From a bacterium (GTDB taxonomy: Bacteria > Zhuqueibacterota > Zhuqueibacteria > Residuimicrobiales > Krinioviventaceae): 64,000 nt of DNA. How positions within the stretch are numbered: the stretch's first letter is position 1; the number at the start of each line of letters is the position of its first letter. Below the pieces are notes generated by a model. That model made no database searches. It saw only the letters and a list, made by a program, of their open reading frames with translations, and was not told the origin of the DNA. The position numbers were made by a program, and so were the translations under genes. Of this stretch, positions 1,960-63,573 are shown piece after piece. The DNA lies in contig CAXXMD010000002.1 of assembly GCA_963675755.2 (NCBI GenBank), positions 384,001 through 448,000 of the forward strand, written 5' to 3'.

Positions 1960-2038
1960 AATTTTAATATGGTAATTAATAGGTTTAAATAATAATATAT
2001 AATCAAATGAGATGTATTTCTTGCTCTTGGAGAAAATT

Positions 2039-4969
2039 ATGACAAAAATTCCTAAAAATTGGTTGTATTTATTCATCATCTTGGTTTTGCTGGTAACGCA
2101 AAGCGGTTTTACTGCTGTTACTGGTAAAATTAGCGGAAAGGTAGTTGACGGTGAATCAGGTGACCCGTTACCTGGCGCAAATGTGCTGATAGACGGCACT
2201 ACACGTGGTGCCGCTACTGATGTTGAAGGTAACTTTTTAATAATTAATCTTGCCCCTGGTACTTATACTCTTAGGGTAAATATGATTGGTTATAATACGG
2301 TACAGATTCAAGATGTTCGTGTTTACACTGACCGTATAACCAAACAAAATTGTGAATTGACCATGGGTGTTCTTGAAGGGCAGGAAGTTGTTATTGTTGC
2401 CGGTAGAGAGCCCATCGAATTTGATAGAACAAATACCGCAGCTTATGTGAACCAGGAGGAGATTGAAGCTTTGCCGGTAACAACTTTTAGCGAAGTTATT
2501 GCTTTGCAATCTGGTGTTGTTGCTGATGCTGGCGGCAGTCTTCACTTTCGTGGTGGTCGTTCCCGCGAAGTTGCATATATGATTGATGGTATTCCAGTTA
2601 CTAATAACTTTAGTCAGGGTGGTGGTTCAAACGTTGCTATAGAAAATAACTTTATTAAAGAGCTTCAGGTTATTACCGGAACCTTTAATGCAGAATATGG
2701 TTCTGCCCAATCTGGTATCATTAATGTTGTGACCAAAGTTCCTGAAGACAAGTTTGATTTTAGTTTAGATGCCATGACTGGTGGATATTATTCTCCTAAT
2801 AAACCTCAATATATTGGCCTTGATTCATATGACCTGTTAAATACACAGGAATACAAATTTTCGGTTTCCGGACCGCTACCTTTTCCTAAAAAACTGGGTA
2901 AGCTTGGCTTTTTTGTAAATGGTCGTATTGTTAATGATGATGGCTATTTAAATGGTGAAAGACGTTATTCACCTGAAGATGGTTGGGAAATTGAAGTTTT
3001 TCGTGAATGGTACAATGCAACTTATGATCCCAAGGATCCACTTTTGATTCCAATTCCAGATTCATTGCATACCGGTGACGGATCAATTGTTTCTATTGAT
3101 TGGGAAAAGAAATATAGCATTAATACCAAGCTTGTTTATCAACCATTGCCATCTATGACTTTGTCATATAATTTGTTTACAAGTGATGGTGAAGGTAAAT
3201 CTTATTCTCATTCCTGGCGTTATACCCCAGATGCATTACCGTTCTGGTATGATGATAAAGTAACCCATATGTTGGTTTTTACTCATTCACCATTTGAAAA
3301 TCTTTACTATAATTTGCGTTATTCAATGCAAAAAAGTGAAACAAAAGCTTATACATATGAAGATCCTAATGATCCCAGATACCAATTGACCTCAATCAAT
3401 GCCTGGGATCCGGGTTCCATCACTGGTTATGACTTTGGTGGTATCTATAGCTGGGATCGTAATTTCCAGGAACGTACTATGAATTTGATTAATGGTGATG
3501 TTACCTGGCAGCTTAATAAAGTAATGGAAATTAAAACAGGTTTTGAATATAAAGACCATGATCTTCATTATCGCAATGCTCCAATGAAAGCTAAATTTGG
3601 TTATGAAACACAACAGTTCCCCTTTACCAGAAGTGAGATCGCAGGTCTTGAATTGCCATATGAATTCTTTCGCGATTCTACCAGAGCCTACGATTACGGA
3701 ACTATAAAACTCCGTCAGGCAAGTCCTGATAGCTCATTGGATGATCTTTACTATGTTGATTATAACCGGTATCCTATTGAAGCAGCAACTTTTGCCCAGA
3801 CCACTCTTCACATGGGTGAAATTATTTTAAATGCCGGTTTAAGATATGATTATTTTGCACCTGAAGATCGTTGGGCACCCAATTATTCAATTATTTACCC
3901 CGAGCTTGTTGGTAAAGATTATATTGAAACTGAAGATGGTGAAAGAATACAATACTATGAGCAAGCCGAAGCCAAGTGGCAATTGAGTCCACGTTTTGGT
4001 TTGTCGTTCCCCATTTCAGAAAAAGGTGCTATGCGTCTTTCTTATGGACATTTTTTCCAGACACCTAGTTTTGAAAAAATGTACCAAAATCCAGTTTTGC
4101 CGGATTACAATGAATTTAGTATTATGGGAACCAGTATTGGTAACCCAAATCTTAAACCAGAAAAAACTATCCAATATGAATTGGGTTTACAACAAGAGTT
4201 AACACCTGGATTGTCAATGGAATTGACAGTTTTCTATAAAGATTTCCGTGATCTTTTGGGTATTGAGATTTTGACTCTGAGTAATGCAACAACATTCTAT
4301 CGCTATATTAATAAAGAATATGGTGATTCAAAAGGTGTGTCATTTGCATTGAATTATAGCTCTATGGATAACAAGGTTGTTGCCGGTGTTGACTATTCAT
4401 ATATGACAGCAAAAGGTACTTCTTCAAGTCCTGAAGCTGCCCGTGATGTCGCGATTTTATCCGGTTCTTCCAAAGGCGCATATTCTCTTGCATCACGTAG
4501 AATCGATTACCTGAACTGGGACCAAACTCACAGTTTGAATGCAACAATTAGTGTTCAACCTGTTAAAAAACTTTACCTCAGCGTAGTTGGCCAATTGGGT
4601 TCTGGTTTACCATATTCACCTTCTACACTTGATCCTAACATTGAGATCCCCAGTGGTTGGTGGGACAATGCTGACCGCAAACCTGTAAGATGGGCTGTTG
4701 ATTTCAAGATCAACAAGACTGTTACTTTGATGAATTATAATTTCTCAGTTTACATGAATGTTTATAATATCTTTAATCACTTGAATGAAAACTCTGTCAA
4801 TAGCATAACCGGTCGTGCGGGCCCAGATGCATACCTGCCAGAAATCGCTCGTAAACGTTATTACAGACTTGAACAATTGGGTGAATTCACTCAGGAGGAA
4901 GCAGACTATAATCCTACTGAATATTCACGTCCACGCTTAATTCAATTTGGACTTTCATTTGCATTATAG
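2039..4969 (+). CDS. TonB-dependent receptor with N-terminal carboxypeptidase-regulatory-like domain (non-SusC type)
   Basis: Signal peptide; GKISGKVVD..GDPLPGANV; plug HFRGGRSREVAYMIDG, GTFNAEYG; GNPNLKPEKT; terminal strand PRLIQFGLSFAL. Start moved to ATG 2039 after GGAG. Confidence 0.92.
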   Translation: MTKIPKNWLYLFIILVLLVTQSGFTAVTGKISGKVVDGESGDPLPGANVLIDGTTRGAATDVEGNFLIINLAPGTYTLRVNMIGYNTVQIQDVRVYTDRITKQNCELTMGVLEGQEVVIVAGREPIEFDRTNTAAYVNQEEIEALPVTTFSEVIALQSGVVADAGGSLHFRGGRSREVAYMIDGIPVTNNFSQGGGSNVAIENNFIKELQVITGTFNAEYGSAQSGIINVVTKVPEDKFDFSLDAMTGGYYSPNKPQYIGLDSYDLLNTQEYKFSVSGPLPFPKKLGKLGFFVNGRIVNDDGYLNGERRYSPEDGWEIEVFREWYNATYDPKDPLLIPIPDSLHTGDGSIVSIDWEKKYSINTKLVYQPLPSMTLSYNLFTSDGEGKSYSHSWRYTPDALPFWYDDKVTHMLVFTHSPFENLYYNLRYSMQKSETKAYTYEDPNDPRYQLTSINAWDPGSITGYDFGGIYSWDRNFQERTMNLINGDVTWQLNKVMEIKTGFEYKDHDLHYRNAPMKAKFGYETQQFPFTRSEIAGLELPYEFFRDSTRAYDYGTIKLRQASPDSSLDDLYYVDYNRYPIEAATFAQTTLHMGEIILNAGLRYDYFAPEDRWAPNYSIIYPELVGKDYIETEDGERIQYYEQAEAKWQLSPRFGLSFPISEKGAMRLSYGHFFQTPSFEKMYQNPVLPDYNEFSIMGTSIGNPNLKPEKTIQYELGLQQELTPGLSMELTVFYKDFRDLLGIEILTLSNATTFYRYINKEYGDSKGVSFALNYSSMDNKVVAGVDYSYMTAKGTSSSPEAARDVAILSGSSKGAYSLASRRIDYLNWDQTHSLNATISVQPVKKLYLSVVGQLGSGLPYSPSTLDPNIEIPSGWWDNADRKPVRWAVDFKINKTVTLMNYNFSVYMNVYNIFNHLNENSVNSITGRAGPDAYLPEIARKRYYRLEQLGEFTQEEADYNPTEYSRPRLIQFGLSFAL

Positions 4970-4989
4970 AAAAATGGGTATATAAGATT

Positions 4990-6057
4990 ATGAAAAAAAT
5001 ACATTTATTATTCAGCTTTATTGTAATCTTTTACTGTAGCCAGTCTGTATTTTCTCAAATTGATTTGAGTGATGCCCAATACAGTTCTGATATAAGTAGA
5101 AGTGGAACATCTGCAGGTGCAATGCTTGAAATTGGTATTGGCGCCCGTGCAGAAGCTATGGGAGGAGCATTCGTTGGTGTTGCTGATGATCCTTCTGCTC
5201 TTTACTGGAACCCTGCAGGAATTATTAAAGTAAATACAATTTCTGTTCAGGCGACAAAAACCGAATGGTTTGTAGGTACAACTTTTAATTCACTTGATTT
5301 GGTCGTACCCGTTAAAATGGTCAACTCTGCACTTGGCGTTCATATTGCCATGTTAGATTATGGCTCTAATCCGGTGCGTACAATTTTCCGTCCGGAAGGA
5401 AATGGAGAAACATATTCGGCTTCCGATCTTGTTGCTGGACTCTATTGGGCTTTGGGCATTACAGACCGTGTAAACGTTGGCTTGGGTTTGAAATATTTTC
5501 AACAGAATATCTGGCATGTTACCGGTACCAACGTTGCTGTTGATTTGTCAATTTTGTTCGATACACCAGTAAAAGGTTTGACACTTGGTGGTGCATTGAG
5601 CAATCTTGGACCAGAGTTCTCACTTGATGGTCGAGATCTGACAAGAGTTTATGATATTGATGGCCGTAAAGATACATATTACAATAATGATAATGTCGCA
5701 ATCCAGCTTGCCACTGAAGCTTATCCTTTACCACTTTTATTTAGATTTGGTATGGCTTACACATGGCAACTTACTGCAAGAAATTCTTTGCTAATTGCGT
5801 CAAACGTCAACCATCCTAGCAATAATGTTGAAACTGTGGATGTAGGCGCAGAATTGAATTTGCTTGATCTTGGTTTTTTGAGAGCTGGATATCAATCTTT
5901 GTTTGATGATAAATCTGTTTCTGGGCTTTCTCTGGGAGCAGGTTTGAAATACAGAGTACTTGGTTCAGCTACTTTGACTTTTGATTATGCATGGACAGAC
6001 TGGACTGTTCTTGCGTCAACCAACAGATTTACTGTTGGTATCAGTACAGCTTATTAA
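4990..6057 (+). CDS. PorV/PorQ-like (UPF0164-type) outer-membrane beta-barrel
   Basis: Signal peptide; LEIGIGARAEAMGGAFVGVADDPSALYWNPAG; alternating beta-strands; LRAGY..., FDYAW; paralog of 55656-56681. Confidence 0.85.
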   Translation: MKKIHLLFSFIVIFYCSQSVFSQIDLSDAQYSSDISRSGTSAGAMLEIGIGARAEAMGGAFVGVADDPSALYWNPAGIIKVNTISVQATKTEWFVGTTFNSLDLVVPVKMVNSALGVHIAMLDYGSNPVRTIFRPEGNGETYSASDLVAGLYWALGITDRVNVGLGLKYFQQNIWHVTGTNVAVDLSILFDTPVKGLTLGGALSNLGPEFSLDGRDLTRVYDIDGRKDTYYNNDNVAIQLATEAYPLPLLFRFGMAYTWQLTARNSLLIASNVNHPSNNVETVDVGAELNLLDLGFLRAGYQSLFDDKSVSGLSLGAGLKYRVLGSATLTFDYAWTDWTVLASTNRFTVGISTAY

Positions 6058-6096
6058 TTAAGGTTTTGTTTCTAAAATTTAGTTAAAGGATGATTT

Positions 6097-9000
6097 ATGA
6101 AAAAGCTTGTTAATATATGTGCATTGATCATTTTATCAGCAAGTTCGCTTTTTGCGCAGGCTGCAGGATCACAATTTGATCTGCATCCTATGCACTGGGC
6201 CCGTTTTTGGGCAAGGGGACTTTTTGATCGTAACTTGATTTATTGCCCTGTTTGGAATATTGGTAATGTTACAGATTCTGGCGTTGACCCGGGTGATGAT
6301 ATGCAATGGCCCGGTAGTGAAGGTCTGGCATTTGTTGATGCTGCTGTTTTTTATATTGGTGCATTGGTTTATGACATGTCTGCTTATGAAGGAAAACAAG
6401 TTCCTGAAACCTGGGATGGTAGTGATATTTATATTGTAAGTGATGCTTATAATACTCATGTTTCTCAAGCAGTACCATGGGCCCAGTTATCTAAAGATAA
6501 AACTCACCAGCAGAAATGGGCACCAATTCCTGGATTTTTTAATGATGGTGCTTATGGCTATATTTATGGAATAAATGAAGATACTAATGGTGATGGTGAA
6601 TTAGCACCTGCTGAAGATGTTAATTTGAATGGTATTTTAGATTATAATCTTGAACCCCCGGAAAGTATTTTGAAAAGTATGGCTATCAGTACTGATAAAC
6701 GTACCTGGCCTGAATACTGGCCCGGTGGTACTTATGTTGGTGATGATCGTGAATTTTTTGGAAGACCGCCAAGAACTATTGAACCTGGTGAACGACAAGG
6801 TTTGTGGAATGGTGAATTTAAAGCGGGTACCATTTCTGATCAGGAAACATTGTATTGGATGGATGATCATGAAAATGACCATTGGAATGATTATAAAGTA
6901 GGTCGTTACTGGCCAATGAAAAATTCTGATGGTACTCCGGATACAACACCCTGGGCAGATGGTGGTATTGCCGGTGCTGGTGTTGAAGTTGAAGCCAGAA
7001 CTTATGCATGGTTTCACCCATTAGCTGAAGATTTGCTGGTTTCTGTTTATCGTGTGCGTAACTATAGTGATTATACTCTGAACCGAGTTGTTACGGGTAT
7101 GTGGGCAAATGCCAATATCGCTGGAAAAGGTGATTATAACCTTGCCAGTTATATTATTGCAGATTTTGATTATGAAGGCTCTGGTGGTCGTCTTGATTTC
7201 GATATTTTGTATCAATGGCACCAATTCCCGGATCAGCTTTCTACATATAAAAAAGTTGGTACCTTTGGATTTGCATTTCTTGAAAGTCCTGGTATCCCTT
7301 ATAACGGTTTAGATGATGATGCTGATGGTCTTGTAGATGAAGCCATGGATGATGGTATTGATAATGATGGTGACTGGTTACCTTATGCTGATATAGGTAT
7401 CGATAAAAAAGGACCTGGTGATGAAGGTTATGTGGGTCCCGATGGTGATGGAACTGAAAATAATGGAAGATGGGATACTGAAGATTCAAACTTGAATGGA
7501 GCTTTGGATCCCGGTGAAGATACTAATAAAAATGATAAACTTGATTTTGAACCTATTCGTAACGACCGTGGAACTGATGGTATTGGTCCTGATGAAAATG
7601 GCTGGCCAGGTCCTGATCCTGATGGTACTGAAGCCAATGGCGCTATGGATATTGGCGAACCGAATTTTGACAAAACTGATATCGATGAAGCTGACCAAGC
7701 TGGTTTGAAACATGTTTATGTTTATGAAAACAATAAAGATCTTAAAGATGATAAAGCCTTTTGGGAAAAATATCTTGCCAAAGATGATGTAGATATTGAA
7801 GAAACTGATGAAGATATCGTTTTTACTTTTGGCGCTCGTAATGTAAAATTAGATATTGATGTTTGGAGACGCTTTACAATTGCAATGATTATGGGTGAAG
7901 ATGAAGCTGATGCAATTCGTAACAAAGCAACCATGCAGAATATCTATGATGAGAATTATCAGTTCCTGACTCCTCCATTACAACCTACTTTGGTATCCAA
8001 TACTACAGATAGAAAAGTTCAATTGTATTGGGATACAGATGCTGAAACTTCTAAAGATCCATTCTTTGGTGAAGATTTTAATGGTTATCGCCTTTACAAG
8101 AGTACCGATCCTAAATTTCTGGATGTTAAAACCATTACTGATGCTTTTGGTAACATACTCTTATTTGAACCTTTGGAAATTTGGGATAGGGATGACGGTT
8201 TGATGGGTGTTCACCCAATTCCATTCCCCAACTTGGGTGTACATTATGATATGGGTAATGATAGTGGTTTGAAACATGCTTATGTTGATACGGTTGTTGA
8301 GAATGGTAGAACTTATTATTATGCGTTAACTGCGATTGATGCAGGTAATGATGATGACTTTTATGAAAGAAAACTCGTTACTGAAGATTATCCAATGCAG
8401 GCTATGCCTAGTGAATCACCGTTTAATATTACAGTAAACAAACTGGGTGAAGTTGTGTATAGAGACAGGAACACAGCAGTTGTAATTCCTACTGAACCTG
8501 CTGCCGGTTTTACAGAGCCACATATCGACTCAACTCTGATTAAACACAATTCAGGTTGGGCTCGTGGTGGAAAAATGAATATTGAAGTTTTCAATAAAAA
8601 TCATGCAAATCTGGGTAATGTTTATGAACTCCAGTTTGAAGATGATCACTGGCTTGACAGCCTCACGAACAAGTTTGAGTGGGGTGGAACAACAGGTATA
8701 CGTTGTTTGAACATTACAACCGGTGATACCATGTTTGATTTTCAATATGATACACCATATTATTTCAAAGAAGAAGCTTATAAGGAAATTGAGCAAGGCT
8801 TTTTTGAAGGTGTTCACTATGATCTGAGTTTTCCGATTGATACGGATGTAAGATATCATGGTATTGATATTGTTAAAACAAATGAAGATGGTCGCAAAAC
8901 CAATGAATGGAAACGTTGGGCAACTGATACAGAATCTAATCTTCGTGTTGAAGAAATTGATCTTGATAATTCAGATGCTACCATTGCATTACCTTTTGAT

Positions 9001-9735
9001 TTTGAAATTAGAGTAGAAGAGGAAATGGGTGCTGATACTTCAATTGCTATTCCACCATTGATTAAAGCATATCCTCTTAATTTTACAACTTGGAATGTTA
9101 CAGATCCAAATAATCCTATCCAGATGGACGTTGTTGTTCGTTACGATAAGGACTCTCGACTGGAATTACCCGATGAAATGTTTGGTCAACTTTGGGACAG
9201 CACACGTGTAATTTTAAAGCTTCCTAATAAAAAAGAAACGGGATGGTTGTCTTCTTGGACAGTTGAATTTTATAAAAACCGTTTTGATTCTTTAAAACCT
9301 GTTATTGCTCCTGCTCCTGGTGACATTTATAGGTTTAAAACGACCCGTAATCCATCTCGTCATGACCGTTTTCAATTTACAATTGATGGTGGTACATGGG
9401 ATGAAGATAAAGCAAAAATTGAAATGCGTGATATCTATGTAGTACCTGATCCTTATGTAGTATCAAGTAGTTACGAATCTATATATGAACTTGCAGGATA
9501 CTCGCAAAGACGTGTTGATTTTGTAAATTTACCGCCACAATGTACTATTAAAATATTTACAGCCAGTGGTAAACTTGTAAGAACTCTGGATCACAATGAG
9601 GCAAATGACTTTGGACGCCATTCCTGGGATCTAACTACTGAAGATGGACCCGAAGTTGCCTTTGGAATGTACTTTTTTGTAGTTGAATCAAAAGCACTTG
9701 GAACAACACGTGGTAAATTTGCGATTATCAAGTAA
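6097..9735 (+). CDS. Large secreted acidic protein with Asp/Gly-rich (probable Ca-binding) loops, FN3-like domain and atypical C-terminal sorting domain
   Basis: Signal peptide; DTNGDGEL, DDDADGLVDE, DDGIDNDGDW, GEPNFDKTD; PPLQP..KVQLYWD...ENGRTYYYALTA; C-terminus VVPDPYV...VAFGMYF..VES..GKFAIIK; paralog of 51790-55629. Confidence 0.8.
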   Translation: MKKLVNICALIILSASSLFAQAAGSQFDLHPMHWARFWARGLFDRNLIYCPVWNIGNVTDSGVDPGDDMQWPGSEGLAFVDAAVFYIGALVYDMSAYEGKQVPETWDGSDIYIVSDAYNTHVSQAVPWAQLSKDKTHQQKWAPIPGFFNDGAYGYIYGINEDTNGDGELAPAEDVNLNGILDYNLEPPESILKSMAISTDKRTWPEYWPGGTYVGDDREFFGRPPRTIEPGERQGLWNGEFKAGTISDQETLYWMDDHENDHWNDYKVGRYWPMKNSDGTPDTTPWADGGIAGAGVEVEARTYAWFHPLAEDLLVSVYRVRNYSDYTLNRVVTGMWANANIAGKGDYNLASYIIADFDYEGSGGRLDFDILYQWHQFPDQLSTYKKVGTFGFAFLESPGIPYNGLDDDADGLVDEAMDDGIDNDGDWLPYADIGIDKKGPGDEGYVGPDGDGTENNGRWDTEDSNLNGALDPGEDTNKNDKLDFEPIRNDRGTDGIGPDENGWPGPDPDGTEANGAMDIGEPNFDKTDIDEADQAGLKHVYVYENNKDLKDDKAFWEKYLAKDDVDIEETDEDIVFTFGARNVKLDIDVWRRFTIAMIMGEDEADAIRNKATMQNIYDENYQFLTPPLQPTLVSNTTDRKVQLYWDTDAETSKDPFFGEDFNGYRLYKSTDPKFLDVKTITDAFGNILLFEPLEIWDRDDGLMGVHPIPFPNLGVHYDMGNDSGLKHAYVDTVVENGRTYYYALTAIDAGNDDDFYERKLVTEDYPMQAMPSESPFNITVNKLGEVVYRDRNTAVVIPTEPAAGFTEPHIDSTLIKHNSGWARGGKMNIEVFNKNHANLGNVYELQFEDDHWLDSLTNKFEWGGTTGIRCLNITTGDTMFDFQYDTPYYFKEEAYKEIEQGFFEGVHYDLSFPIDTDVRYHGIDIVKTNEDGRKTNEWKRWATDTESNLRVEEIDLDNSDATIALPFDFEIRVEEEMGADTSIAIPPLIKAYPLNFTTWNVTDPNNPIQMDVVVRYDKDSRLELPDEMFGQLWDSTRVILKLPNKKETGWLSSWTVEFYKNRFDSLKPVIAPAPGDIYRFKTTRNPSRHDRFQFTIDGGTWDEDKAKIEMRDIYVVPDPYVVSSSYESIYELAGYSQRRVDFVNLPPQCTIKIFTASGKLVRTLDHNEANDFGRHSWDLTTEDGPEVAFGMYFFVVESKALGTTRGKFAIIK

Positions 9736-11290
9736 TACATTTTTTGTTCTGATTTTATTTGGGACATTGATCTTTTTAGCTTGTTCGAAACCTGAAATTG
9801 ACAATGTCCCAATGGATCAGATTGTAGCTCAAGTTGGAGATCAATACATAACTGTTGATCAGTTTCGAATCAGTTATGAACAAAGTTTTCCGATCATGCG
9901 GCAAGGTGAAAAAAAGCCCCGATATGTTTACCTGGACCACATGATCAATGAATTGTTACTGGCTTCAAATGGTTTTGATGAAGGTTATGATAAATCGTCA
10001 TATGTAACCAGTCGAATGAATAGAAGGCAATACCAAGATTTGTTAGAATCTTTTTATACTAAATATGTTTATAGTCGGGTTAAAATACCTGAAGATGAGT
10101 TGCAGGAAGCAACTCAAAAGGGAAGTGTTAAATTTAGGCTAATGTTTTGGCCTACTCCATCTTTGGATGAAGCTAAAAAAGCATATGAGCAAGCAGTAAA
10201 AAGTGATTTGGAAAATTTTATTGATAATGAACTTGCAAAACAGGAAACAAAACTTCAGTTTAAAGAATTTTTTCAAACCGATTGGATTGATTTTTTAGAA
10301 TTACCTCCTAGAATTTTTGATCAATTGGCAGATTTGGAAATTGGTGTTCCTTCTCAACCTATACCCCTTGGTAACGGCTATGCATTGTTTCAGGTTATGG
10401 ATGTTAACTATGAAGGATTGACAACTGAAGAAGTGAAACACGGTATTAAACGTAAAAGAATGGAAAAACGTTTAAAAAATATTGAAACAGATCGTATTGC
10501 ACATGCAGTTATGGATTCAGTGTTAACTCCAATGGACATTCGTGTTAGGGGCCCAGTAGTTAATCAAATTGCCCCATTACTATATCAATGGTTTCAAGAT
10601 GGTTTGCCCAAAAGTAAATCGTTGCTTGAGCATGTTACTACTCCTGACGATACAGCAAAACAATATATTTTTGATTTAAAAGAATTATTGGATGAAGCTT
10701 TGGTAACTACAAAATCTGGAATTAAAACTGTTTCTGATCTTTTGGATTATACAAATTATTACCGAAGTTCACTAAACCGTCCAATGGAATATGATTTATT
10801 CAGAGAGATGTTAATTACTCAAATTGGAACAATGGTAAAAAATGATGCATTTGTCAATATTGCAAAAAATGAAGGTTATCTTGATTCAATAAATGTTCAT
10901 CAGGATTTGAGAATTTGGCGTGACAAATGGACATTTGATATTTCACGTTATGAAATAATTAAAAATTATAATGTTACAGATGAAGAAATGAAAGAATATT
11001 TTAAAAACCGTTATACTGAATTGGGAATTGCAGATGTTGATACTACTCGGTTTTATAAATATGAAAATGAAATATATAATCGAATTTTGCATGAAAAGCA
11101 TTTAGCGGAAATAAATGACAAACTTGTAAAGTTTAAAAAACAATATCCTATAGTAATTCATTATAATGTTTTAGACACATTAAACCTGAATGAAGGGAAA
11201 AAAGAAAAATTTCCATTTTTCCTAAGAAATAATTTTTCAGGTGAAGCTGTTGCACCTACAGTTGATTTAAAATGGTTATACTATAATTAG
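9710..11290 (+). CDS. Lipoprotein, SurA/PrsA-like chaperone with degenerate parvulin domain
   Basis: Lipobox LIFLAC; IVAQVGDQYITVDQF; LEIGVPSQPI..GNGYALFQV. Start uncertain (GTG 9710 or TTG 9719), overlapping the upstream gene. Confidence 0.65.
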   Translation: MVNLRLSSNTFFVLILFGTLIFLACSKPEIDNVPMDQIVAQVGDQYITVDQFRISYEQSFPIMRQGEKKPRYVYLDHMINELLLASNGFDEGYDKSSYVTSRMNRRQYQDLLESFYTKYVYSRVKIPEDELQEATQKGSVKFRLMFWPTPSLDEAKKAYEQAVKSDLENFIDNELAKQETKLQFKEFFQTDWIDFLELPPRIFDQLADLEIGVPSQPIPLGNGYALFQVMDVNYEGLTTEEVKHGIKRKRMEKRLKNIETDRIAHAVMDSVLTPMDIRVRGPVVNQIAPLLYQWFQDGLPKSKSLLEHVTTPDDTAKQYIFDLKELLDEALVTTKSGIKTVSDLLDYTNYYRSSLNRPMEYDLFREMLITQIGTMVKNDAFVNIAKNEGYLDSINVHQDLRIWRDKWTFDISRYEIIKNYNVTDEEMKEYFKNRYTELGIADVDTTRFYKYENEIYNRILHEKHLAEINDKLVKFKKQYPIVIHYNVLDTLNLNEGKKEKFPFFLRNNFSGEAVAPTVDLKWLYYN

Positions 11291-11342: not shown

Positions 11343-13433
11343 ATGATGAAACACTTGGCTATTGTTCTTGTACTGTTGAGCATGTGTGCATTCAGTACAG
11401 CAGTTTTCGCCGATTATATGATTATGGATGGCGATAGCTCAGATTGGGCTATGGATCCAATTCAAATCGTTGGTGAAGACAATGTTGACGGCTTGTTCCC
11501 GGCAGAAGTCGGTGCAGCAATTACGGACAATGTTGATGTTAAACATGTTCGTGCAAAAATCGTTGACAACGTTGCTTACACTTTTATTCGTTTTCAAGGC
11601 GGCCCAGCTTGGCCAAATGAAGCTGACAAAGGCGAATATGAAGGTGTTCCAGTGCAACGTTCACGTGGTTATTATCATCTGATGTTGGACCTTGATAATG
11701 ATCCTTCAACCGGTTGGAATTCCGGTTACTATGAAGCTCATTATACCCCGGTTGGTTATCTTGAAAGCCAGGGCGTTGAAGGCCAGGAACATATTGGTGC
11801 TGAAGCTGTAATTGGTACAGGTTTCTATACATACCGCAGTGCTCCACATCCGGACAGTGCTGGTATTAAAAACTCTGGTATCAAATCTGTAAGTTATTTT
11901 GCAGCTGATGTTTCTGAATATGATGCTGTTTCAGATGGTGGTACTGATTATGAAATTTTCGATACTGAAATCAATGACCCCGACTCTGCTAAATCATTTC
12001 AGTGGAGTGGTGCATTACAGATCGGAAGTAGTGATCTTGAAGGTCTTGCAGAAGACAAATACTACCATATGGCCCATGCTTGGGGCGAAGACTGGATCGA
12101 GTTTGCAATGGAATTGACTCCATTGAAACAATGGTTTGCAAGCAAAGGCATGAGTTATTTCCAGGAAGGTGATGTTATTGGTATCACTGCAATGATTGAA
12201 ACTCCTGCTGATGATTGGGGTACTGATATCCCGACACGTGGCGAAATGGTTTGTCCTGCAATGCCTATGCGTCCAAATGCTATCACTTTTGATGGTGATG
12301 ATTCTGATTGGGCTGGTATGGAGCCAATTATTACTGCTATTGACAATGTTGATGGTCTGTATCCTGCAGAAGTTGGTGCAGCTGTTACTGATAATGTTGA
12401 TATCAAAGAAGTTAAAGCTTTTTACCAGACTGACACTGAAGTATTGTATTGGAATCTGAAAATGTGGGGCGGTCCTGTATGGCCCAACGAAGCTGATAAA
12501 GGCGAATACGAAGGTGTTCCAGTTCAGCGTTCACGTGGTTATTACCATGTATTGTTAGATTTTGATAACGATCCTACTACTGGTTGGAATTCTCATTACT
12601 ATGAAGGTCACTATACTCCGGTTGGTTACCTTGCAAGCCAGGGTGCTGAAGATACAGATCCTATCGGTTCAGAACTTTGGGTAGAATTTGGTGCACGTAC
12701 TTATAAATCTGCTCCTCACCCAGACAGTGCTGGTATCAAAAATTCAGGTGTTGCTGCTGTTAACTGGTGGTTAGCTGATTGGTCACAATATGTTGGTGAA
12801 AATGATGGTGGTACCACCTGGGAATTCACTGATGCTGATGTTACTGATCCTGATTCTGCTGCTGCAATGAAATACGATGGCTACCTTGCAAATGGTGGTG
12901 ATTTTGAAACAGGTAAAGTATTCTGGAATGCACATGCTTGGGGCGACGACTTTATTGAAGTTGGTACAAGTATGAGTATTGCTAAAATGTGGTGGATGGA
13001 ACAATATAGCCAGGAAGTATTGAAACCTGGTGATGTTGTTGGTATTGCTGGTTTTAATGAAACTCCTGCTGATGACTGGGGTTGTGATATGACTGCACGT
13101 GGCGAAATTGTAATTGCTGAAGCTACTGGCATTGCCGATGGTGCAGCTGTTGTTGAAGGTTACAAATTGAGTGACAACTATCCAAACCCATTCAACCCAA
13201 CTACTTCTATTAGCTATACTGTTCCACAATCTGCTGACGTAAGTATTGAAATTTTCAATACTTTGGGTCAAAAAATCCGTACTTTGGTTGATGGCAAAAT
13301 GGCTGCTGGCGAACATACTGTTTCTTGGAATGGTATGAACGATGCTGGTCAATCTGTATCCAGTGGTATCTATTTTTACCGCATGGTTTCAGATCAAATG
13401 ACTGTTACCAAAAATATGGTTCTCTTGAAATAA
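11343..13433 (+). CDS. Secreted protein with two ~288-aa tandem DOMON/CBM9-like repeats and a canonical CTD
   Basis: Strong RBS AAGGAGG; signal peptide; repeats begin DGD.SDW and contain LD.DNDP.TGW; C-terminus YPNPFNPTT...VSSGIYFY..TKNMVLLK. Confidence 0.75.
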   Translation: MMKHLAIVLVLLSMCAFSTAVFADYMIMDGDSSDWAMDPIQIVGEDNVDGLFPAEVGAAITDNVDVKHVRAKIVDNVAYTFIRFQGGPAWPNEADKGEYEGVPVQRSRGYYHLMLDLDNDPSTGWNSGYYEAHYTPVGYLESQGVEGQEHIGAEAVIGTGFYTYRSAPHPDSAGIKNSGIKSVSYFAADVSEYDAVSDGGTDYEIFDTEINDPDSAKSFQWSGALQIGSSDLEGLAEDKYYHMAHAWGEDWIEFAMELTPLKQWFASKGMSYFQEGDVIGITAMIETPADDWGTDIPTRGEMVCPAMPMRPNAITFDGDDSDWAGMEPIITAIDNVDGLYPAEVGAAVTDNVDIKEVKAFYQTDTEVLYWNLKMWGGPVWPNEADKGEYEGVPVQRSRGYYHVLLDFDNDPTTGWNSHYYEGHYTPVGYLASQGAEDTDPIGSELWVEFGARTYKSAPHPDSAGIKNSGVAAVNWWLADWSQYVGENDGGTTWEFTDADVTDPDSAAAMKYDGYLANGGDFETGKVFWNAHAWGDDFIEVGTSMSIAKMWWMEQYSQEVLKPGDVVGIAGFNETPADDWGCDMTARGEIVIAEATGIADGAAVVEGYKLSDNYPNPFNPTTSISYTVPQSADVSIEIFNTLGQKIRTLVDGKMAAGEHTVSWNGMNDAGQSVSSGIYFYRMVSDQMTVTKNMVLLK
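11427..13106 (+). repeat. Intragenic tandem duplication, period ~860 nt (11427-12245 and 12291-13106)
   Basis: Identical peptides in both units, e.g. WPNEADKGEYEGVPVQRSRGYYH, SAPHPDSAGIKNSG, ETPADDWG. Confidence 0.95.
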
Positions 13434-13453: not shown

Positions 13454-13491
13454 AGATGGGATTGTCATTCCGACAGTCCCATCTTTTTTTT
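13454..13491 (+). terminator. Intrinsic terminator
   Basis: AGATGGGATTGTC-ATTCC-GACAGTCCCATCT followed by a T-run. Confidence 0.85.
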
Positions 13492-13512
13492 ATGTTAAAC
13501 AGGATAGGTGAA

Positions 13513-14922
13513 ATGCTCAAATTGAAACTCTTTTTATTGTTGTCTTTTTCTATTTTAATCTTTTCTTGTTCTGAAAATTCCAATACCAATATAGCAGTCT
13601 ATGAAGGTGGTTCAATTACAATTGATGATTACGTAAATCACTTTCTTGAAAGCACCCGTTATAAACCCACTTTTATTCCTGATGAACAAAATCTTGAGGA
13701 TATTGTTCACAAATTGGCTGTTACCAAATTATCAGTAGTAGAAGGTTTTGCTACCCAAATAGATTCTGATACTGCTTTTATTGATCTTTACAATAAAAAC
13801 AATAGCAGAATATTATTTCATAAATATATGAGAAAAATGATCATCGATTCTGTTATTACAGATAGTCTCATTCAAAAATACTATGCAGAATTTTCACCAC
13901 AATACCATATGTATTATATAATGCGTCCTGTACCTAAAACATCTACTCATGAGTTTGACCAATCTCAAAAAAAAGTGATTGAACAAGTTTATTCCAAGCT
14001 TGAAAAAGGTGAGGATTTCCATAAACTTGCTGAAACTTTTTCTCAGGATATAACAACCAATAAAAAGGGTGGAGATCTAGGTTGGATTATCCGTGAATCA
14101 CTAGGTGATAAAGTTTTGCGTTCAGTTATGGATACATTAAAACAGGGAAATTATTCTGCTCCTATCAAAGGTTATGAAGGTTGGTATGTTGTATTAAAAG
14201 GTGAAATGCGTAATGTACCGGTTCCATCATTTCAAGATGCAGAAAGTAAAATTTGGAAAAGTTTATATAATACACGTAAACATATAATGCAGGAAATTCT
14301 TGATGAAAAGTTTAACAGTGTAAAAGATAAATACCAGCTTGAAATAAATTATGATAATATCAATAAAATTGTAAAATCAACAGGTTCAGATACAACAACT
14401 CCCTATAAATTTATGGACTTTTCTAATTTCCCACCTGAAAATTTTGAGATTATTTTAGCTACATTTACCGGTGGAAAAATTGTTGCTGGTGAAGTAATAC
14501 GAAGTATTAAAAAATCACCTGATAATTATAAAGATTTTCAAAAACGTTTTAAATCTTTATGTGAACAATATATAATGGCAGAATTCTCCAAAACTTTGGG
14601 TTTTGAACAAGATCCCGAAGTTGTTCAAGAGAATGAAAATTATAAACAATTAGTGATGAAAAATTTAGTATACCAAAAAAATGTTCGTGATAAAGCCATT
14701 GCCAAAGTTGATGAATTAAAGGCAGAGCTTGAAAAAACGACAAATCCTGCAGATTTATCCAAAGTGCTTAGTGCGCATCAGGTCCGTTTTGAAAATGAAT
14801 TGAATAAAGAATTTGAAGAACATTTATTTAATAAATATAATCTACAAATAGTTAAAAGTAATATTCCACGTGCTTTAAAAATTGCTGAAAAAATGAAAAA
14901 GGAACAAGAAGAGAAAAAGTGA
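13513..14922 (+). CDS. Parvulin-type peptidyl-prolyl isomerase lipoprotein (PrsA/SurA-like)
   Basis: Start moved to ATG 13513 (AGGTG RBS); lipobox LIFSC; GEDFHKLAETFSQD..TNKKGGDLGWI. Confidence 0.85.
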   Translation: MLKLKLFLLLSFSILIFSCSENSNTNIAVYEGGSITIDDYVNHFLESTRYKPTFIPDEQNLEDIVHKLAVTKLSVVEGFATQIDSDTAFIDLYNKNNSRILFHKYMRKMIIDSVITDSLIQKYYAEFSPQYHMYYIMRPVPKTSTHEFDQSQKKVIEQVYSKLEKGEDFHKLAETFSQDITTNKKGGDLGWIIRESLGDKVLRSVMDTLKQGNYSAPIKGYEGWYVVLKGEMRNVPVPSFQDAESKIWKSLYNTRKHIMQEILDEKFNSVKDKYQLEINYDNINKIVKSTGSDTTTPYKFMDFSNFPPENFEIILATFTGGKIVAGEVIRSIKKSPDNYKDFQKRFKSLCEQYIMAEFSKTLGFEQDPEVVQENENYKQLVMKNLVYQKNVRDKAIAKVDELKAELEKTTNPADLSKVLSAHQVRFENELNKEFEEHLFNKYNLQIVKSNIPRALKIAEKMKKEQEEKK

Positions 14923-14963: not shown

Positions 14964-17900
14964 ATGAAAAAGTTAATTGCTTTTGTTATTATATATTTAA
15001 TATCAAGTTTATCTCTGGCTTTGGGAAAGCCAGAGATTCAATTTTCAGCGCAAAATTTTCTAGATAAAACATTACTTTCAAATAATTTTCAACATAATAA
15101 TTTTGATATAAAATCAATTGAAACCTCAACAGATTTTAAATTCCCGGTTTACATTGTACATTTGTATCCGCAGGGATTTCTGCTATTTGTGGAGGGTCAA
15201 AACCTTGACAAACCTGTCGCGTATTCTGTGAATTCAAACTGGGACCCGGATTCTAATAATCCATTTATATCCTTTTTGAAAAATGATCTCCAGTATTTTA
15301 ATTCATACTCTAACCAATTTTCAATCTCAACATTACTTGAAAATAATAATCATGTGAATGATCTTGAATCCTGGCCACCTGTGGGTTCTACATCCACTGG
15401 AGGATGGATGGAGACCACCTGGCACCAAAAAAATCCATATAATCAATTTTGTCCTATGGATACTTTTACAAATAAAAGATCCATTACAGGGTGTGTGGCA
15501 ACTGCAATGGCGCAGATTGTTCAATATCATCGTTTTATTGGAGATTTTCAACTTTCTCCGAATGATCGATATATTACCGGTTATAGAAAAATGCGTATTG
15601 ATCAGGATAGTGAAGTTCTGGATTTTAAAGATTTTTCAACATTAAATACCTTTCTTATTGACATCCATTCCTGTTATGAATCAGGTACTGATTTAACTAC
15701 TGATCAAATTGCTGCTTTGAATTTTGTTTGTGGAATACTGGTCAAAATGGATTTTACTTCAGATGTATCTGGTGCTGCACTTGCAGATGTTGATTCTGTT
15801 TTAACTTTTAAATTTGGTTATTCTTCTGCCAATTTCTCCAGCTATTCTGATGTGAGATTTTATGACCAGTTAATTGAACACATGATGAATGCATTACCTG
15901 TACCCATAAGTTTGGGGGCTCATATTGCAGTTGTTGATGGATATAATACGGATGGATTTTTTCATATGAATTTTGGATGGGGTTCGGGTACGCCTGCGCA
16001 AATCCAAGAATGCTGGTATCTGTTACCAGAAGGTATGCCATATCAATATGATAAAATTTATTCTGCTGTATTTAATATTAAACCATCATTTGCAGTAAAT
16101 TCTACATTATCAGTTAGTGACAGTCTCTTGTATTTTGATTCAACTTTGTTAAATACTGAATCAAAAATAATGAATTTTAATATTATTAATTCAGGTGATG
16201 AAGCAGTTAAAATTGATAAAATTACTGTTTCTGATTATTTTCAGATCAGTTTAGATGCTAAAACATTTTCTTCTCAAATTAGCGAGTTTTCAATTCCTCC
16301 TTTACATAATATAGAATTAAATGTACGCTGTATACCTGATAGCTTTGGTCTTTTTGAGGGGAAAATTGAAATATTATCAACTGAAAATAATTTAAAGCGA
16401 TATAAAACTGTTGATCTTGCTTGTTATGGAGTCCCCGACAATAGAAATGTAATTTTTGCTGGTAATATTAATGGTGTTTGGGAAAAGGACTCTCATCAAT
16501 ATATTATTGGAGATCTTGATATAATCACCGGAGATTCATTGATTATTGAACCGGGAGTTAAAGTTGAATTTCAAGGTCCATATAATATAAATGTTGGTTC
16601 TAATGCAAAGCTCATTGCCAGAGGTGCCGCATTGGATACCATTAAATTTTTCTCAGAGAATGTACAAATAGGATGGAAGGGGATAAATTTACTTTCTTCT
16701 GCTGATGATGATAGTTTTTTCTATTGTGATTTTCAATTCTCAAAGAATACAGGTGAAAATGGTGGTGCGTTTCAACTTGATTCTACCGATGCTTTTTTCA
16801 GCAATTGTAATTTTAAAAATAATACTGCTGAAAATGGTGGTGCAGTTTATTGCAGTTATTCTAAACCTGAATTTTATCAATGTTCATTCATTAATAATAC
16901 AGCCAGATTAGGTGGCGCGCTTTATTCAGTGGTTTCAAATATTAAAATTCAACAAACATTAATTTGTAATAATTCAGTTACAATTAATGGAGGTGGTATC
17001 TTTTCTTATGACTCGGATTTATCTTTAATAAATGTTACCATTTCTCACAATAATGCAATTCAAAGAGGTGGGGGATTAACTATAGATGGTGGAGAAAAAA
17101 TATTTATAAATAATACTATTTTATATAGTAACAATGCCTCAAATTTGGGGCACAATCTTTATCTCCTCGATAATCATTGGAATAGCACTGTTATTGAATT
17201 TGCTTTTTGCAATATTGACCGGCATTCTGAATCTTCATTTTATGATTTTACCTATTCTAATAATATGATTATGAAATGGAATTATGGTAATATTGATGTT
17301 GATCCGTTATTTGTAAACCCGGATAATCATGATTATCATTTACAACCAATTTCTAAATGTATAGATGCCGGTAATCCTTCAATTGATGTAGGATTTGAGC
17401 CCTTTCCACACGGTTATTGTACGAATCTTGGTGCTTATGGGAGAACAGATCAGGCAGCAACAACTGATTCGCCTAGACTTGCCGTTGATCCTTTTCCCAT
17501 CTTGTTTGATAATGTTAATGTTGATTCATTGAATTCTTTAAAAGTTTATTTAAAAAATGGATGTAATGAAAATCTTGTTATAAATAATATTTCAAACAAT
17601 AATACAGATATTTATTCACTTTCACTACCTCAGGAATATAATGATAATGGTAAATTAACAATTCAATCAGGAAGCATTGATAGTTTGATTTTGATATTGG
17701 ATTTATCTGATTCTACTTTAACATCAGTTGATGATTCTGTTTTTGTTCAGCTTGAAAATGCGCCAGATATATCTATCCCCGTAATCTGCAATTCTTTTCT
17801 AGCTACAACAATTGATAGTGGTGATGTATCCGGTGTATGGACTCTAGAAAACAGCCCCTATATTATTAACGATTACATATTTGTTAAACAAAATGATTCT

Positions 17901-20522: not shown

Positions 20523-20575
20523 GTTGATAATTATAAATATTTTAACTAATTTATAAAAATAATAATCAATATTTG

Positions 20576-20612
20576 GGGTGTAATTCCAGTTTTAATTCGG
20601 AATTATTCACTC
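20576..20612. other. Intergenic hairpin between the two beta-helix paralogs
   Basis: GGGTG-TAATTCC...GGAATTA-TTCACTC inverted repeat; no clear U-tract. Confidence 0.4.
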
Positions 20613-20648
20613 TTGCAATTCAAATTCTAATACTCAAGGGGAGTGATT

Positions 20649-23558: not shown

Positions 23559-23593
23559 ATGCTTACACTCTGGAGTCAATTTGAGAGGAAGAG

Positions 23594-24880
23594 ATGAAAG
23601 CCCTAAAATATATTATTCTATTTTTAGTTATTCTATCTACTCAAGGTATTTCCAATACCCTAAAAGCGGGAACTGCTTCTGAAAAATTGACTCCACCTCT
23701 GGAAATGCAATTTGCCCTTGGTGGTTATGGAGCCCGGATGAGCAATCCAGCCGAAGCAGTACATGATGACATTTGGGTAAAATCATTAGTCATTAGTGAA
23801 GAGGATAAAGAATTTGCGCTCGTAACATTGGATATTCTTGCCTTGCCTCCAAATGTTAAATCTCAGGTCATAGATGCTTTGGGTTCATCCCGTTGGTCAA
23901 TGGAAAATGTTTTGCTGCTGCCCAGCCATTCTCATACAAGCCTGGATATGACCGCGTTGAATGATAAAAATATTCTCAACAGTCCACAAATTGGTATTTA
24001 TCAACCAGAACTATTAAAATTTGTTACTGATGTTATCGTAAATTGTATCAAAAGTGCCGGTAGTGAATTGCAACCTGTCAAGGTTGGTACGGGGAGGGTG
24101 CAACTGGATGGTTTGAATCGAAACCGACGCCATGATGAAATGATTGACCATGATCTGACTGTTACACGTATCGACCTGTTAAATGGTAATCCTCTTGCGG
24201 TGCTGGTAAACTGGACTGCTCATCCCACATTTATGGATGAGAATGATATGTGGGTATCAGCCGGATGGCCTGGTTATTTGCAGCGTGAACTGGAAGCATG
24301 GATAGGACAGGGTGTTACAGCAATGTATTACAATGGCGCCCAGGGTGATTTGTCTCCTGTTGAAAAATTTGGATCAAGTCATTATGAAAAGGCTGAACGA
24401 TATGGAAGAACCATTGCAAAGCATGCTTTTCAATTACATCAATCCATTGATACACGTGCAGATATCATTTTTGATTATAATGCTCAAACGCTCTTGCTGC
24501 CTGAACGTATTGCCCATCCCAAGTTTGCTCAAACAGGAGGGGAAGAATATGCTATTGATGATCAGGTTATGAAAATCATATTGGATATCATGAGTCCTGA
24601 AAAAGTGGTTATCAATTCTTTACGTCTTGGGGATTTAATTATTGCAGGTACACCTGGTGAATTAATTTGTGAAATGGGTTTAAAAGTAAAATCCAAATTA
24701 CAGAATAAAGTCAAATATCCTGTTATTGGTGGTTTGGCAAATGAATGGATTAGCTACATTCTAAGCGAAACGGAATATCATCAGGCCGGTTATGAAACCA
24801 GTGTAAGTTTTTATGGACCTTTTCTTGGTGATATTATTGTCAATGCAATGATCAAAAGTTCTCTTCAATTAACAAAATGA
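23594..24880 (+). CDS. Neutral/alkaline ceramidase N-terminal-domain family protein, secreted
   Basis: LGGYGAR, HDDIWVKSL, SHSHTS, NWTAHPT, GAQGDLSP, PGE, GLANEWISYI. Confidence 0.8.
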   Translation: MKALKYIILFLVILSTQGISNTLKAGTASEKLTPPLEMQFALGGYGARMSNPAEAVHDDIWVKSLVISEEDKEFALVTLDILALPPNVKSQVIDALGSSRWSMENVLLLPSHSHTSLDMTALNDKNILNSPQIGIYQPELLKFVTDVIVNCIKSAGSELQPVKVGTGRVQLDGLNRNRRHDEMIDHDLTVTRIDLLNGNPLAVLVNWTAHPTFMDENDMWVSAGWPGYLQRELEAWIGQGVTAMYYNGAQGDLSPVEKFGSSHYEKAERYGRTIAKHAFQLHQSIDTRADIIFDYNAQTLLLPERIAHPKFAQTGGEEYAIDDQVMKIILDIMSPEKVVINSLRLGDLIIAGTPGELICEMGLKVKSKLQNKVKYPVIGGLANEWISYILSETEYHQAGYETSVSFYGPFLGDIIVNAMIKSSLQLTK

Positions 24881-58855: not shown

Positions 58856-58887
58856 AGGGACCGGTGTAATAACCGGTCCCTTTTTTT
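58856..58887 (+). terminator. Intrinsic terminator
   Basis: AGGGACCGGT-GTAATA-ACCGGTCCCT followed by a T-run. Confidence 0.88.
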
Positions 58888-58907
58888 ATATAATGGATTT
58901 ATTTAAT

Positions 58908-63536: not shown

Positions 63537-63573
63537 AAGGCCTGGTTCAAATTAAGAATCAGGCCTTTTTTTT
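63537..63573 (+). terminator. Intrinsic terminator
   Basis: AAGGCCTGGTTC-AAATTAA-GAATCAGGCCTT followed by a T-run. Confidence 0.82.

Follow-up and report, generated by a model that had tools for sequence, protein, structure and literature searches.

Two loci in a stretch of 64,000 nucleotides from a bacterium of the Krinioviventaceae (phylum Zhuqueibacterota; assembly GCA_963675755.2, contig CAXXMD010000002.1, positions 384,001 to 448,000 of the forward strand; this whole stretch is called the window) carry the same three-gene outer-membrane module: a TonB-dependent receptor (TBDR), a private barrel protein of the PorV/PorQ family and a large, predicted secreted protein that we call X (BIG1 with 1212 amino acids (aa) in locus 1, BIG2 with 1279 aa in locus 2, and their paralogues). 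The best explanation of these loci is that each is a SusD-less nutrient-uptake operon resembling a polysaccharide utilisation locus (PUL) and built on this module. For X itself, we lean towards a glycan binder which is delivered by a type IX secretion system (T9SS), is held by its private barrel via an uncleaved C-terminal tail and serves the adjacent TBDR. Open reading frames (ORFs) of the window were scanned with Pfam and NCBIfam (15 window proteins in the main scan). The host genome (6.48 Mb, 3 contigs, 98% complete) was subjected to de novo ORF calling, followed by phmmer and profile searches for the X, TBDR and barrel families. The trio is undescribed in the full-text literature that was searched, which included a Caldithrix genome paper, a KSB1 paper and a 2026 review of glycoside transporters.

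All genes of both modules lie on the plus strand. Locus 1 has the order TBDR1 (985 aa, 2012-4969), barrel 1 (355 aa, 4990-6057) and BIG1 (6097-9735), and locus 2 the order TBDR2 (1000 aa, 48755-51757), BIG2 (51790-55629) and barrel 2 (341 aa, 55656-56681). An earlier note on this DNA had described two LacI-headed loci with three paralogous genes, and the ORFs and pairwise comparisons agree with it: the receptors share 33% identity (E 3e-159), the barrels 39% (E 3e-78) and the giants 27% across 842 columns (E 2e-56), with a further stretch of 30% identity in the final 228 residues. The two proteins of about 690 aa that follow the modules have only a type A C-terminal domain (CTD) in common (44% over 103 aa). 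The ORFs lie where the note had placed them, except that TBDR1 starts at 2012 instead of 2039. Its count of two modules was far too low, as the whole genome contains exactly 12 X proteins, 12 TBDRs and 12 barrels of the respective subfamilies. Eleven of these 12 sets are contiguous trios, ten of them ordered TBDR-X-barrel and one, locus 1 of the window, TBDR-barrel-X; the twelfth set has its X two genes upstream of a TBDR-barrel pair. One of the trios ends 5.6 kb upstream of the first base of the window. Most X proteins are 685-766 aa long and three reach about 1200-1280 aa, the extra length being made up of inserts in the N-terminal domain and a beta-rich region before the tail.

The three families were well separated from the rest of the genome, with score gaps to the next ORF of 475 versus 74 bits for X, 934 versus 541 bits for the TBDR and 351 versus 191 bits for the barrel, gaps that arise partly by construction since the profiles were trained on the same 12 members. 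Pairwise-distance matrices over the 12 sets were compared in Mantel tests with 9999 permutations, yielding r = 0.88 for TBDR-X, 0.85 for TBDR-barrel and 0.78 for X-barrel (each p = 1e-4). These correlated distances show the three gene families diverging in step and mean that the sets duplicated and diverged as units. An orphan TBDR assigned to the same subfamily (829 aa, 541 bits) was observed outside the window at G000:C3:799635-806319, with four ORFs of 335-355 aa after it; the profile scan of its neighbourhood revealed no X or PorV-family partner.

The module is widespread. The X profile matched all 41 genomes of the order (8-21 matches each) and 143 of 145 phylum genomes of at least 80% completeness, a tally that counts the unpublished genomes G143 and G146; the two genomes that gave no match are 96% and 99% complete. 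Relatives of BIG2 form at least 3410 clusters at 90% identity (E<=1e-5) among 8000 scored candidates. Searching 1.84 billion representatives with the X profile returned 10155 proteins at E<=1e-10, and 2520 clusters at 50% identity matched it at E<=1e-30, some of the top matches of this cluster search being Fn3-repeat giants outside the X family. Among the 120 BIG2 relatives listed, names are given for 26, all of them "hypothetical protein", and the organism labels include candidate division KSB1; 118 of the 120 lack any Pfam entry and the other two carry only PF13585 (CHU_C).

Gene neighbourhoods were surveyed separately for orthologues of the two giants. For BIG2, 542 out of 632 pattern matches in species-representative genomes proved genuine, and 68 loci with 48-71% identity were retained. 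Their organism labels, given as deposited and in some cases clearly loose, read KSB1, Neomarinimicrobiota/Marinimicrobia, Ignavibacteria, Calditrichia/Caldithrix, Fidelibacterota and, once, "Cloacimonetes". A TBDR of the subfamily is the immediate upstream neighbour in 57/57 assessable loci and a barrel of the subfamily the immediate downstream one in 60/60; both flank X in 50/50, at median gaps of 2 bp and 9 bp, respectively. BIG1 has a match at E<=1e-100 in 50 of the 145 phylum genomes. The BIG1 sample consisted of 17 full-length hits with 59-70% identity, leaving aside a genome from the same genus and six hits truncated at contig ends. The order TBDR-barrel-X is retained in all 17 loci (the TBDR being present in 16 of 16 assessable), a SurA-like gene lies 3' of the BIG1 orthologue in 17/17, a homologue of the 696-aa CTD protein is found in 16/16 assessable loci and a peptidyl-prolyl isomerase (PPIase) in 11/12, and a LacI homologue is directly upstream of the TBDR in 6/17. 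The earlier note's observation that gene order differs while the trio is kept thus extends well beyond this genome, and synteny in 50/50 and 17/17 loci rules out chance adjacency of the three genes. The BIG1 counts indicate that six to seven genes of locus 1 are conserved together as a unit, and its gene order is a fixed trait of one orthogroup.

The host lacks the established Bacteroidota solution to glycan uptake. The SusD families PF07980 and PF14322 gave no match in the 98%-complete genome, the Bacteroides thetaiotaomicron control being positive, and none of the 15 window proteins scanned belongs to a SusD Pfam family; the absence of a SusD-like lipoprotein claimed for the two loci therefore holds for the families searched. 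The receptors possess a CarboxypepD_reg domain, a Plug domain and a long barrel (CarbopepD_reg_2, Plug, TonB_dep_Rec_b-barrel and OMP_b-brl_4 in TBDR1; CarboxypepD_reg and Plug in TBDR2) and belong outside the SusC family, as the note had proposed. TBDR1 reaches 90.1 bits on the SusC/RagA model TIGR04056 (cut-off 368.25), through its first 250 residues only, and TBDR2 gave no match to it at E<=0.01, the NCBIfam listing threshold that was also applied to the PorP/SprF and type B CTD models. The best TIGR04056 score in the whole genome is 125 bits and none exceeds the cut-off. In a phmmer search with TBDR2 against the PDB the closest chains were YncD and PqqU, matched in the plug region only, and this search turned up no closely related solved receptor.

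Both barrels pass the NCBIfam family model PorV_fam (NF033709; 162.7 bits for barrel 1 and 202.6 bits for barrel 2, cut-off 90), in line with their description as PorV-like, and barrel 2 additionally matches PF19572 with 35.5 bits. They stay below the equivalog cut-offs for PorV, PorQ and PorV2: the models NF033710 and NF033711 gave 41.2/79.2 bits for PorV (cut-off 250) and 71.6/109.2 bits for PorQ (cut-off 220), so that PorQ is the better-scoring model of the two for either barrel. The earlier note had compared the barrel-giant pair to type B CTD cargo and its PorP-family barrel (SprB/SprF). This analogy was rejected, as neither the PorP/SprF nor the type B CTD models matched the barrels or the giants at E<=0.01, and the right precedent is therefore PorQ-PorZ or PorV-PorU. 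Genome-wide, PorV_fam has 32 matches, 21 of them above cut-off. Outside the window, two PorU-like paralogues of about 1610 aa that score below the PorU cut-off (G000:C3:1891631-1897526 and G000:C2:2179288-2185148) are each directly followed by their own PorV-family barrel, and other PorV-family barrels of the genome come after proteins of 873-3161 aa. Judging from this gene arrangement, a large protein with its private barrel seems to be a general rule in the host genome.

X carries a signal peptide and, as judged by eye, no lipobox. As noted earlier, the two giants are acidic (pI 4.37 for BIG1 and 4.22 for BIG2, about 18% Asp plus Glu) and contain an Fn3 domain, which becomes visible in structure models and not in Pfam; Pfam gave only sub-threshold FlgD_ig/CHU_C matches at the very end of X. 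A 696-aa paralogue modelled with AlphaFold2 from 110 aligned sequences (small X) reached pLDDT 87.2 and pTM 0.89. Using VIA-align against 48,161 chains, its residues ~25-470 aligned to galactose-mutarotase-like supersandwich domains, foremost those of cellodextrin phosphorylase (5nz7, Z 19.3, 272 aa, 3.6 A) and a bacterial glucoamylase (1lf6, Z 18.5, 242 aa, 3.3 A), followed by GH65, GH116 and GH15 entries (Z 16-18.5) and aldose 1-epimerases (Z 12-13). The AlphaFold2 model of BIG2 (residues 23-1190, pLDDT 87.4, pTM 0.76) gave a consistent picture, its first ~600 residues matching 9ju0 (Z 19.3, 254 aa, 3.1 A) and 1lf6 (Z 18.5), with Fn3 and further beta-sandwich domains beyond. On these predicted models all 50 matches listed had Z of at least 11.4, nearly all of them, as we read the alignments, through such a supersandwich. 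The fold of the N-terminal domain is assigned from VIA-align alone; Foldseek against the PDB returned only Fn3/CTD tandem matches for small X and only loose strings of beta-sandwiches for BIG2, e.g. complement C3 with a TM-score of ~0.1. BIG2 is thus laid out as a signal peptide, a supersandwich with inserts (~23-620), Fn3 from ~620, beta-sandwich to ~1160 and the CTD (~1168-1279). The layout of BIG1, taken from models of its paralogues, is a signal peptide, a supersandwich with Ca-loop-like inserts, Fn3, a beta-sandwich region and the family-specific CTD (~1106-1212).

In enzymes of the GH15, GH65 and GH94 type the supersandwich is an accessory, non-catalytic domain on the sugar side of the catalytic barrel. 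The N-terminal domain of X matches these sugar-side domains (Z 18-19) and has no catalytic (alpha/alpha)6 domain joined to it. Neither the small-X nor the BIG2 model showed a catalytic domain, which agrees with the non-catalytic giant that the earlier note envisaged; catalysis by the mutarotase-like domain itself is possible. On the basis of the supersandwich fold and the lack of a catalytic domain in the models, X looks like a non-catalytic carbohydrate-binding protein. Binding could also go together with a closer role at the receptor, namely that X acts as the TBDR's lid and thereby truly takes the place of SusD: held by its barrel, it would cap the extracellular side of the receptor and open and close on the substrate in the manner of the SusCD "pedal bin". 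The strict 1:1:1 copy number and adjacency, TBDR-X being the most tightly correlated pair (r 0.88) and the complete absence of SusD from the genome speak for such a lid. The fold itself makes us doubt it, since X is an all-beta protein of about 685-1280 aa and SusD a helical protein of ~550 aa, and the core of X could equally act as a surface binder of the SusE/F type beside the receptor; we therefore consider a lid possible and no closer to probable than that.

The attachment of X to its barrel is addressed by its tail. All 12 X proteins share a C-terminal domain of about 100 aa with the pattern VxPNPY ... F.NLP..C.I.IFT..G.LV ... GKFxIIK/R. A profile of this tail scored 115-138 bits on the 12 X proteins (135.8 bits on BIG1, residues 1106-1212; residues 1168-1279 in BIG2), followed at a distance by a 1398-aa protein (57 bits), the host PorZ (42 bits) and the type A CTDs (~30 bits), in accordance with the "special CTD" of the earlier note. 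PorZ, whose gene scores 272.6 bits in the PorZ search, is thus the second-best match outside the X family. In the reverse direction, the NCBIfam PorZ model matched the tails of the two giants weakly (E 1e-3 and 3e-5, far below cut-off). Together, the profile scores and these weak PorZ matches suggest that the X tail forms a subclass of its own within the type A CTD fold, leaning towards PorZ. Of the secretion system itself, SprA, two PorU and PorZ were found above cut-off in the host, together with a PorV-family protein of 310 bits elsewhere in the genome, and the two type A CTD proteins of the window matched about 245 host ORFs. Of the T9SS that the earlier note had wished to see confirmed, these parts are present, and the motor genes GldM and GldK were not demonstrated. 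The SprA match, located outside the window at G000:C3:1879556-1885587, spans two open frames (654 and 1456 aa), indicating either that the gene is split or frameshifted or that the assembly contains an error there.

These data also bear on whether X is ordinary T9SS cargo, with the barrel a mere shuttle or secretion helper, the tail being cut off and X released or anchored to lipopolysaccharide, so that no contact with the TBDR is needed. The ~30-bit cross-hits mark the tail as a homologue of type A CTDs, two PorU sortases are available, and PorV itself acts as a shuttle (PMC10202324). Twelve private barrels are nevertheless puzzling in a cell where about 245 other CTD proteins make do with a general PorV, the X tails form a sharply set-off, PorZ-like subclass, and the barrels score nearer to PorQ than to PorV. 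Taken together, this makes ordinary cargo an improbable description of X.

We modelled the complex between barrel 2 (residues 24-341, alignment of 47 rows) and the tail of BIG2 (residues 1160-1279, 22 rows), i.e. the cognate pair only. The complex score was 0.91 (0.90, 0.91 and 0.91 in the individual runs) and the best of three controls scored 0.00; in the calibration set, 116 of 157 solved complexes attained the mark, as did 2 of 215 mismatched pairs. The runs agreed in at least 83% of the contacts, with a partner pLDDT of at least 75. In the modelled interface the PNPY motif (1179-1184) and the last strand of the tail (1272-1279) meet the barrel at its N-terminal segment and its loops. The modelling supports binding of the X tail to its cognate barrel, and to this extent the tethering of the giant proposed in the earlier note was reproduced in the model, which seats the BIG2 tail on its own barrel. 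Precedents for retention exist: according to PMC10202324, PorZ retains its CTD, which binds PorQ, and the CTD of PorU is retained on PorV; the same review contains the suggestion that cognate PorV-like barrels shield CTDs from cleavage.

Further clues come from the genes around the modules. Locus 2 is headed by a LacI-family regulator (45850-46914) and a GH13 alpha-amylase-family enzyme resembling cyclomaltodextrinase/maltodextrin glucosidase (46929-48737; PF00128, E 3.4e-52, NCBIfam matches below the equivalog cut-offs). Downstream of barrel 2 follow a 685-aa type A CTD protein (56791-58848; TIGR04183, 42.9 bits) with an N-terminal CBM_20 match of 17.5 bits (cut-off 23.3), a terminator-like hairpin and seven Ts (58856-58881), a second GH13 enzyme that also carries DUF4961 and a type A CTD, by its Pfam and NCBIfam matches a candidate secreted alpha-glucanase (58893-61676), a sodium:solute symporter (61707-63518; PF00474, E 8e-36) as the candidate inner-membrane sugar importer, and a terminator-like hairpin 3' of it (63537-63567), all on the plus strand. 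The terminator-like hairpins of the window are consensus matches only. Given its two GH13 enzymes, CBM20-like CTD protein and symporter, locus 2 can be read as an alpha-glucan locus. Other sets of the genome are surrounded by GH2 and GH5, by GH28 and pectate lyase (two sets), by a sulfatase, by an HTCS-like sensor with LacI, by a CTD nuclease or by CTD proteins only, and the regulators beside the sets are LacI or HTCS-like. The PUL-type clustering of carbohydrate-active enzymes (CAZymes), regulator and inner-membrane transporter is complete in locus 2, and locus 1 has only the LacI regulator.

Locus 1, likewise on the plus strand, is headed by a LacI-family regulator (946-1959; Pfam LacI, Peripla_BP_1/3). 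BIG1 is followed by a SurA-like protein with a PPIase domain (535-aa ORF, 9683-11290; Rotamase_2 and weak SurA_N matches), a 696-aa type A CTD protein (11343-13433; TIGR04183/PF18962 above cut-off, internal repeat of ~290 aa), a terminator-like hairpin of 13 pairs with a T run (13454-13484) and a parvulin-type PPIase (13456-14922; Rotamase PF00639). The SurA-like and PPIase proteins may serve as chaperones of the outer-membrane complex. The first 53 bp of the SurA-like ORF coincide with the end of BIG1, and the true start of this gene is probably located after 9735; the hairpin likewise overlaps the listed start of the PPIase ORF, whose true start is probably further downstream than 13456. The description of the ~690-aa followers in the earlier note stands as regards the type A CTD in each and the hairpins behind them, and "non-catalytic" amounts to no catalytic Pfam domain having been found. 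In the 696-aa protein the repeat has a period of ~290 aa (DKGEYEGVPVQRSRGYYH... near residues ~95 and ~385), and orthologues reach 985-1280 aa in five loci (L103, L104, L105, L108 and L109), which suggests that repeat number varies in this family. An ESM Atlas look-up of the 696-aa protein returned scores of at most 0.83, including a Glucodextran_C cluster at 0.81; being at lead level only, it was not used. Three genes lie directly 3' of locus 1 (14964-24880); they encode a 1852-aa C10 peptidase that has a beta-helix and a type A CTD, a CTD protein of 971 aa and a protein resembling neutral ceramidase.

The two neighbourhoods pull in different directions with regard to the possibility that the module exports or assembles something, with the TBDR acting like Oar of Myxococcus, which is needed for protein secretion, or the barrel letting a small hydrophobic molecule through as a FadL-type channel. 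The TBDRs are non-SusC and have an N-terminal CarboxypepD_reg domain, locus 1 includes the SurA-like and PPIase genes, a TonB-dependent transporter (TBDT) required for secretion is on record (PMC6434023), and PorV-family barrels are FadL homologues according to PMC12578637. Against this, sugar-type repressors head the loci, glycoside hydrolases and an inner-membrane symporter are encoded in them, and the module accompanies differing CAZyme sets, as PUL cores do. We consider an export function very unlikely.

For the glycan binder held by its private barrel, we infer from the above that X depends on the T9SS, retains its CTD, binds glycans and co-operates with the TBDR. X would be exported by Sec (signal peptide, no lipobox) and would cross the outer membrane through the T9SS, directed by its family-specific PorZ-like CTD. 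The CTD would stay uncleaved in the extracellular face of the barrel encoded by the adjacent gene, tethering X in the same way as PorZ is tethered by PorQ. The supersandwich, Fn3 and beta-sandwich domains would bind a polymer or oligomer, alpha-glucan in the case of locus 2, and X would pass the substrate to the co-encoded TBDR for import, while neighbouring enzymes and the symporter would complete utilisation.

A number of points weigh against this assignment. Co-divergence of the three genes reflects duplication as a unit and is no proof of binding. The type A CTD models TIGR04183/PF18962 are absent from both giants at E<=0.01 and CHU_C reaches 17.9 and 25.7 bits on them (cut-off 27), the ordinary type A CTD proteins of the window giving equally weak CHU_C matches; because no curated CTD model is matched above its cut-off by the X tails, T9SS dependence of X is argued from the resemblance of the tail. 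Within the T9SS of the host, the GldM model was without match, its control being equally silent, and the GldK search gave only sub-threshold matches to the FGE-sulfatase domain. The calibration of the complex score is approximate here as custom alignments were used, and the score may stem from likeness to solved PorV-type complexes. A shared fold proves no function, and aldose 1-epimerases use the supersandwich for catalysis. Finally, about five of the 12 genomic sets lack a neighbouring CAZyme (locus 1 and the sets in L015, L020, L021 and L022), locus 1 having two chaperone-type genes instead and the C10 peptidase beyond them.

Compared with known systems, the module shares with SusC/SusD (RagA/RagB) a TBDR with an N-terminal CarboxypepD_reg-like domain and an adjoining dedicated surface partner, and with SusC/SusD PULs the occurrence in multiple sets per genome (12 here) amid regulators, CAZymes and inner-membrane transporters. 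Unlike in SusC/SusD, the receptor fails the SusC model, the partner is a predicted all-beta protein of the Sec/T9SS type instead of a SusD-fold lipoprotein, and a PorV/PorQ-family barrel is an obligatory third gene. As in PorQ-PorZ and PorV-PorU, where the retained CTD serves as an anchor (PMC10202324), a PorV-family barrel is paired with one CTD protein, and the likeness to PorQ-PorZ is closest in that the X tails are nearest to the PorZ tail among named proteins and the barrels favour PorQ over PorV. In contrast to PorQ-PorZ, the barrels fail the PorQ and PorV equivalog cut-offs, X has no relation to PorZ apart from the tail, and the X-barrel pair is linked to a TBDR and catabolic genes and is present in 12 copies. 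A cargo-specific barrel encoded beside its cargo is also a feature of type B cargo such as SprB/SprF, whose models, however, gave no match at E<=0.01. X resembles SusE/SusF and surface glycan-binding proteins (SGBPs) in being all-beta, multi-domain, non-catalytic in appearance and encoded beside the transporter, and differs from them as it is not a lipoprotein and has no Pfam family. The module is a nutrient system of the TBDT-with-surface-partner kind in which both the partner and the way it would be anchored differ and a third gene is obligatory.

Between the two loci, the window encodes an Fe-only-hydrogenase-like domain fused to a histidine kinase (25081-27129) and, downstream of it up to 37639, a cluster resembling complex I/group 4 NiFe-hydrogenase (NADHdh, 49-kDa subunit/NiFeSe, Mrp-type antiporter subunits). 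A 269-aa protein with a penicillin-binding transpeptidase domain only (39978-40787) has the size of a class D beta-lactamase-like enzyme.

PUL callers based on SusC/SusD would miss this module. For the FCB phyla outside Bacteroidia, which abound in sediments, in the deep ocean and in bioreactors, current predictions of glycan use start from SusC/SusD pairs; as the present host has no such pair and yet 12 modules, carbon-cycling inference for these phyla would miss uptake systems. The X family comprises thousands of unannotated members, and the module would give private PorV/PorQ-type barrels a role outside the secretion machine. As a tentative extension, which we rate below the assignment of X as a tethered glycan binder, KSB1, Marinimicrobia, Ignavibacteria, Calditrichia and their kin may use a three-part "utilisome" as the main feed of their TonB importers, in which X, as a T9SS-delivered and barrel-anchored supersandwich protein, would dock on the receptor as a substrate-loading lid. 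The proposed outer-membrane complex is testable in cultured relatives among the Ignavibacteria or Calditrichia. If true, the utilisome would represent an independent invention of the SusCD principle that ties type IX secretion to nutrient import.

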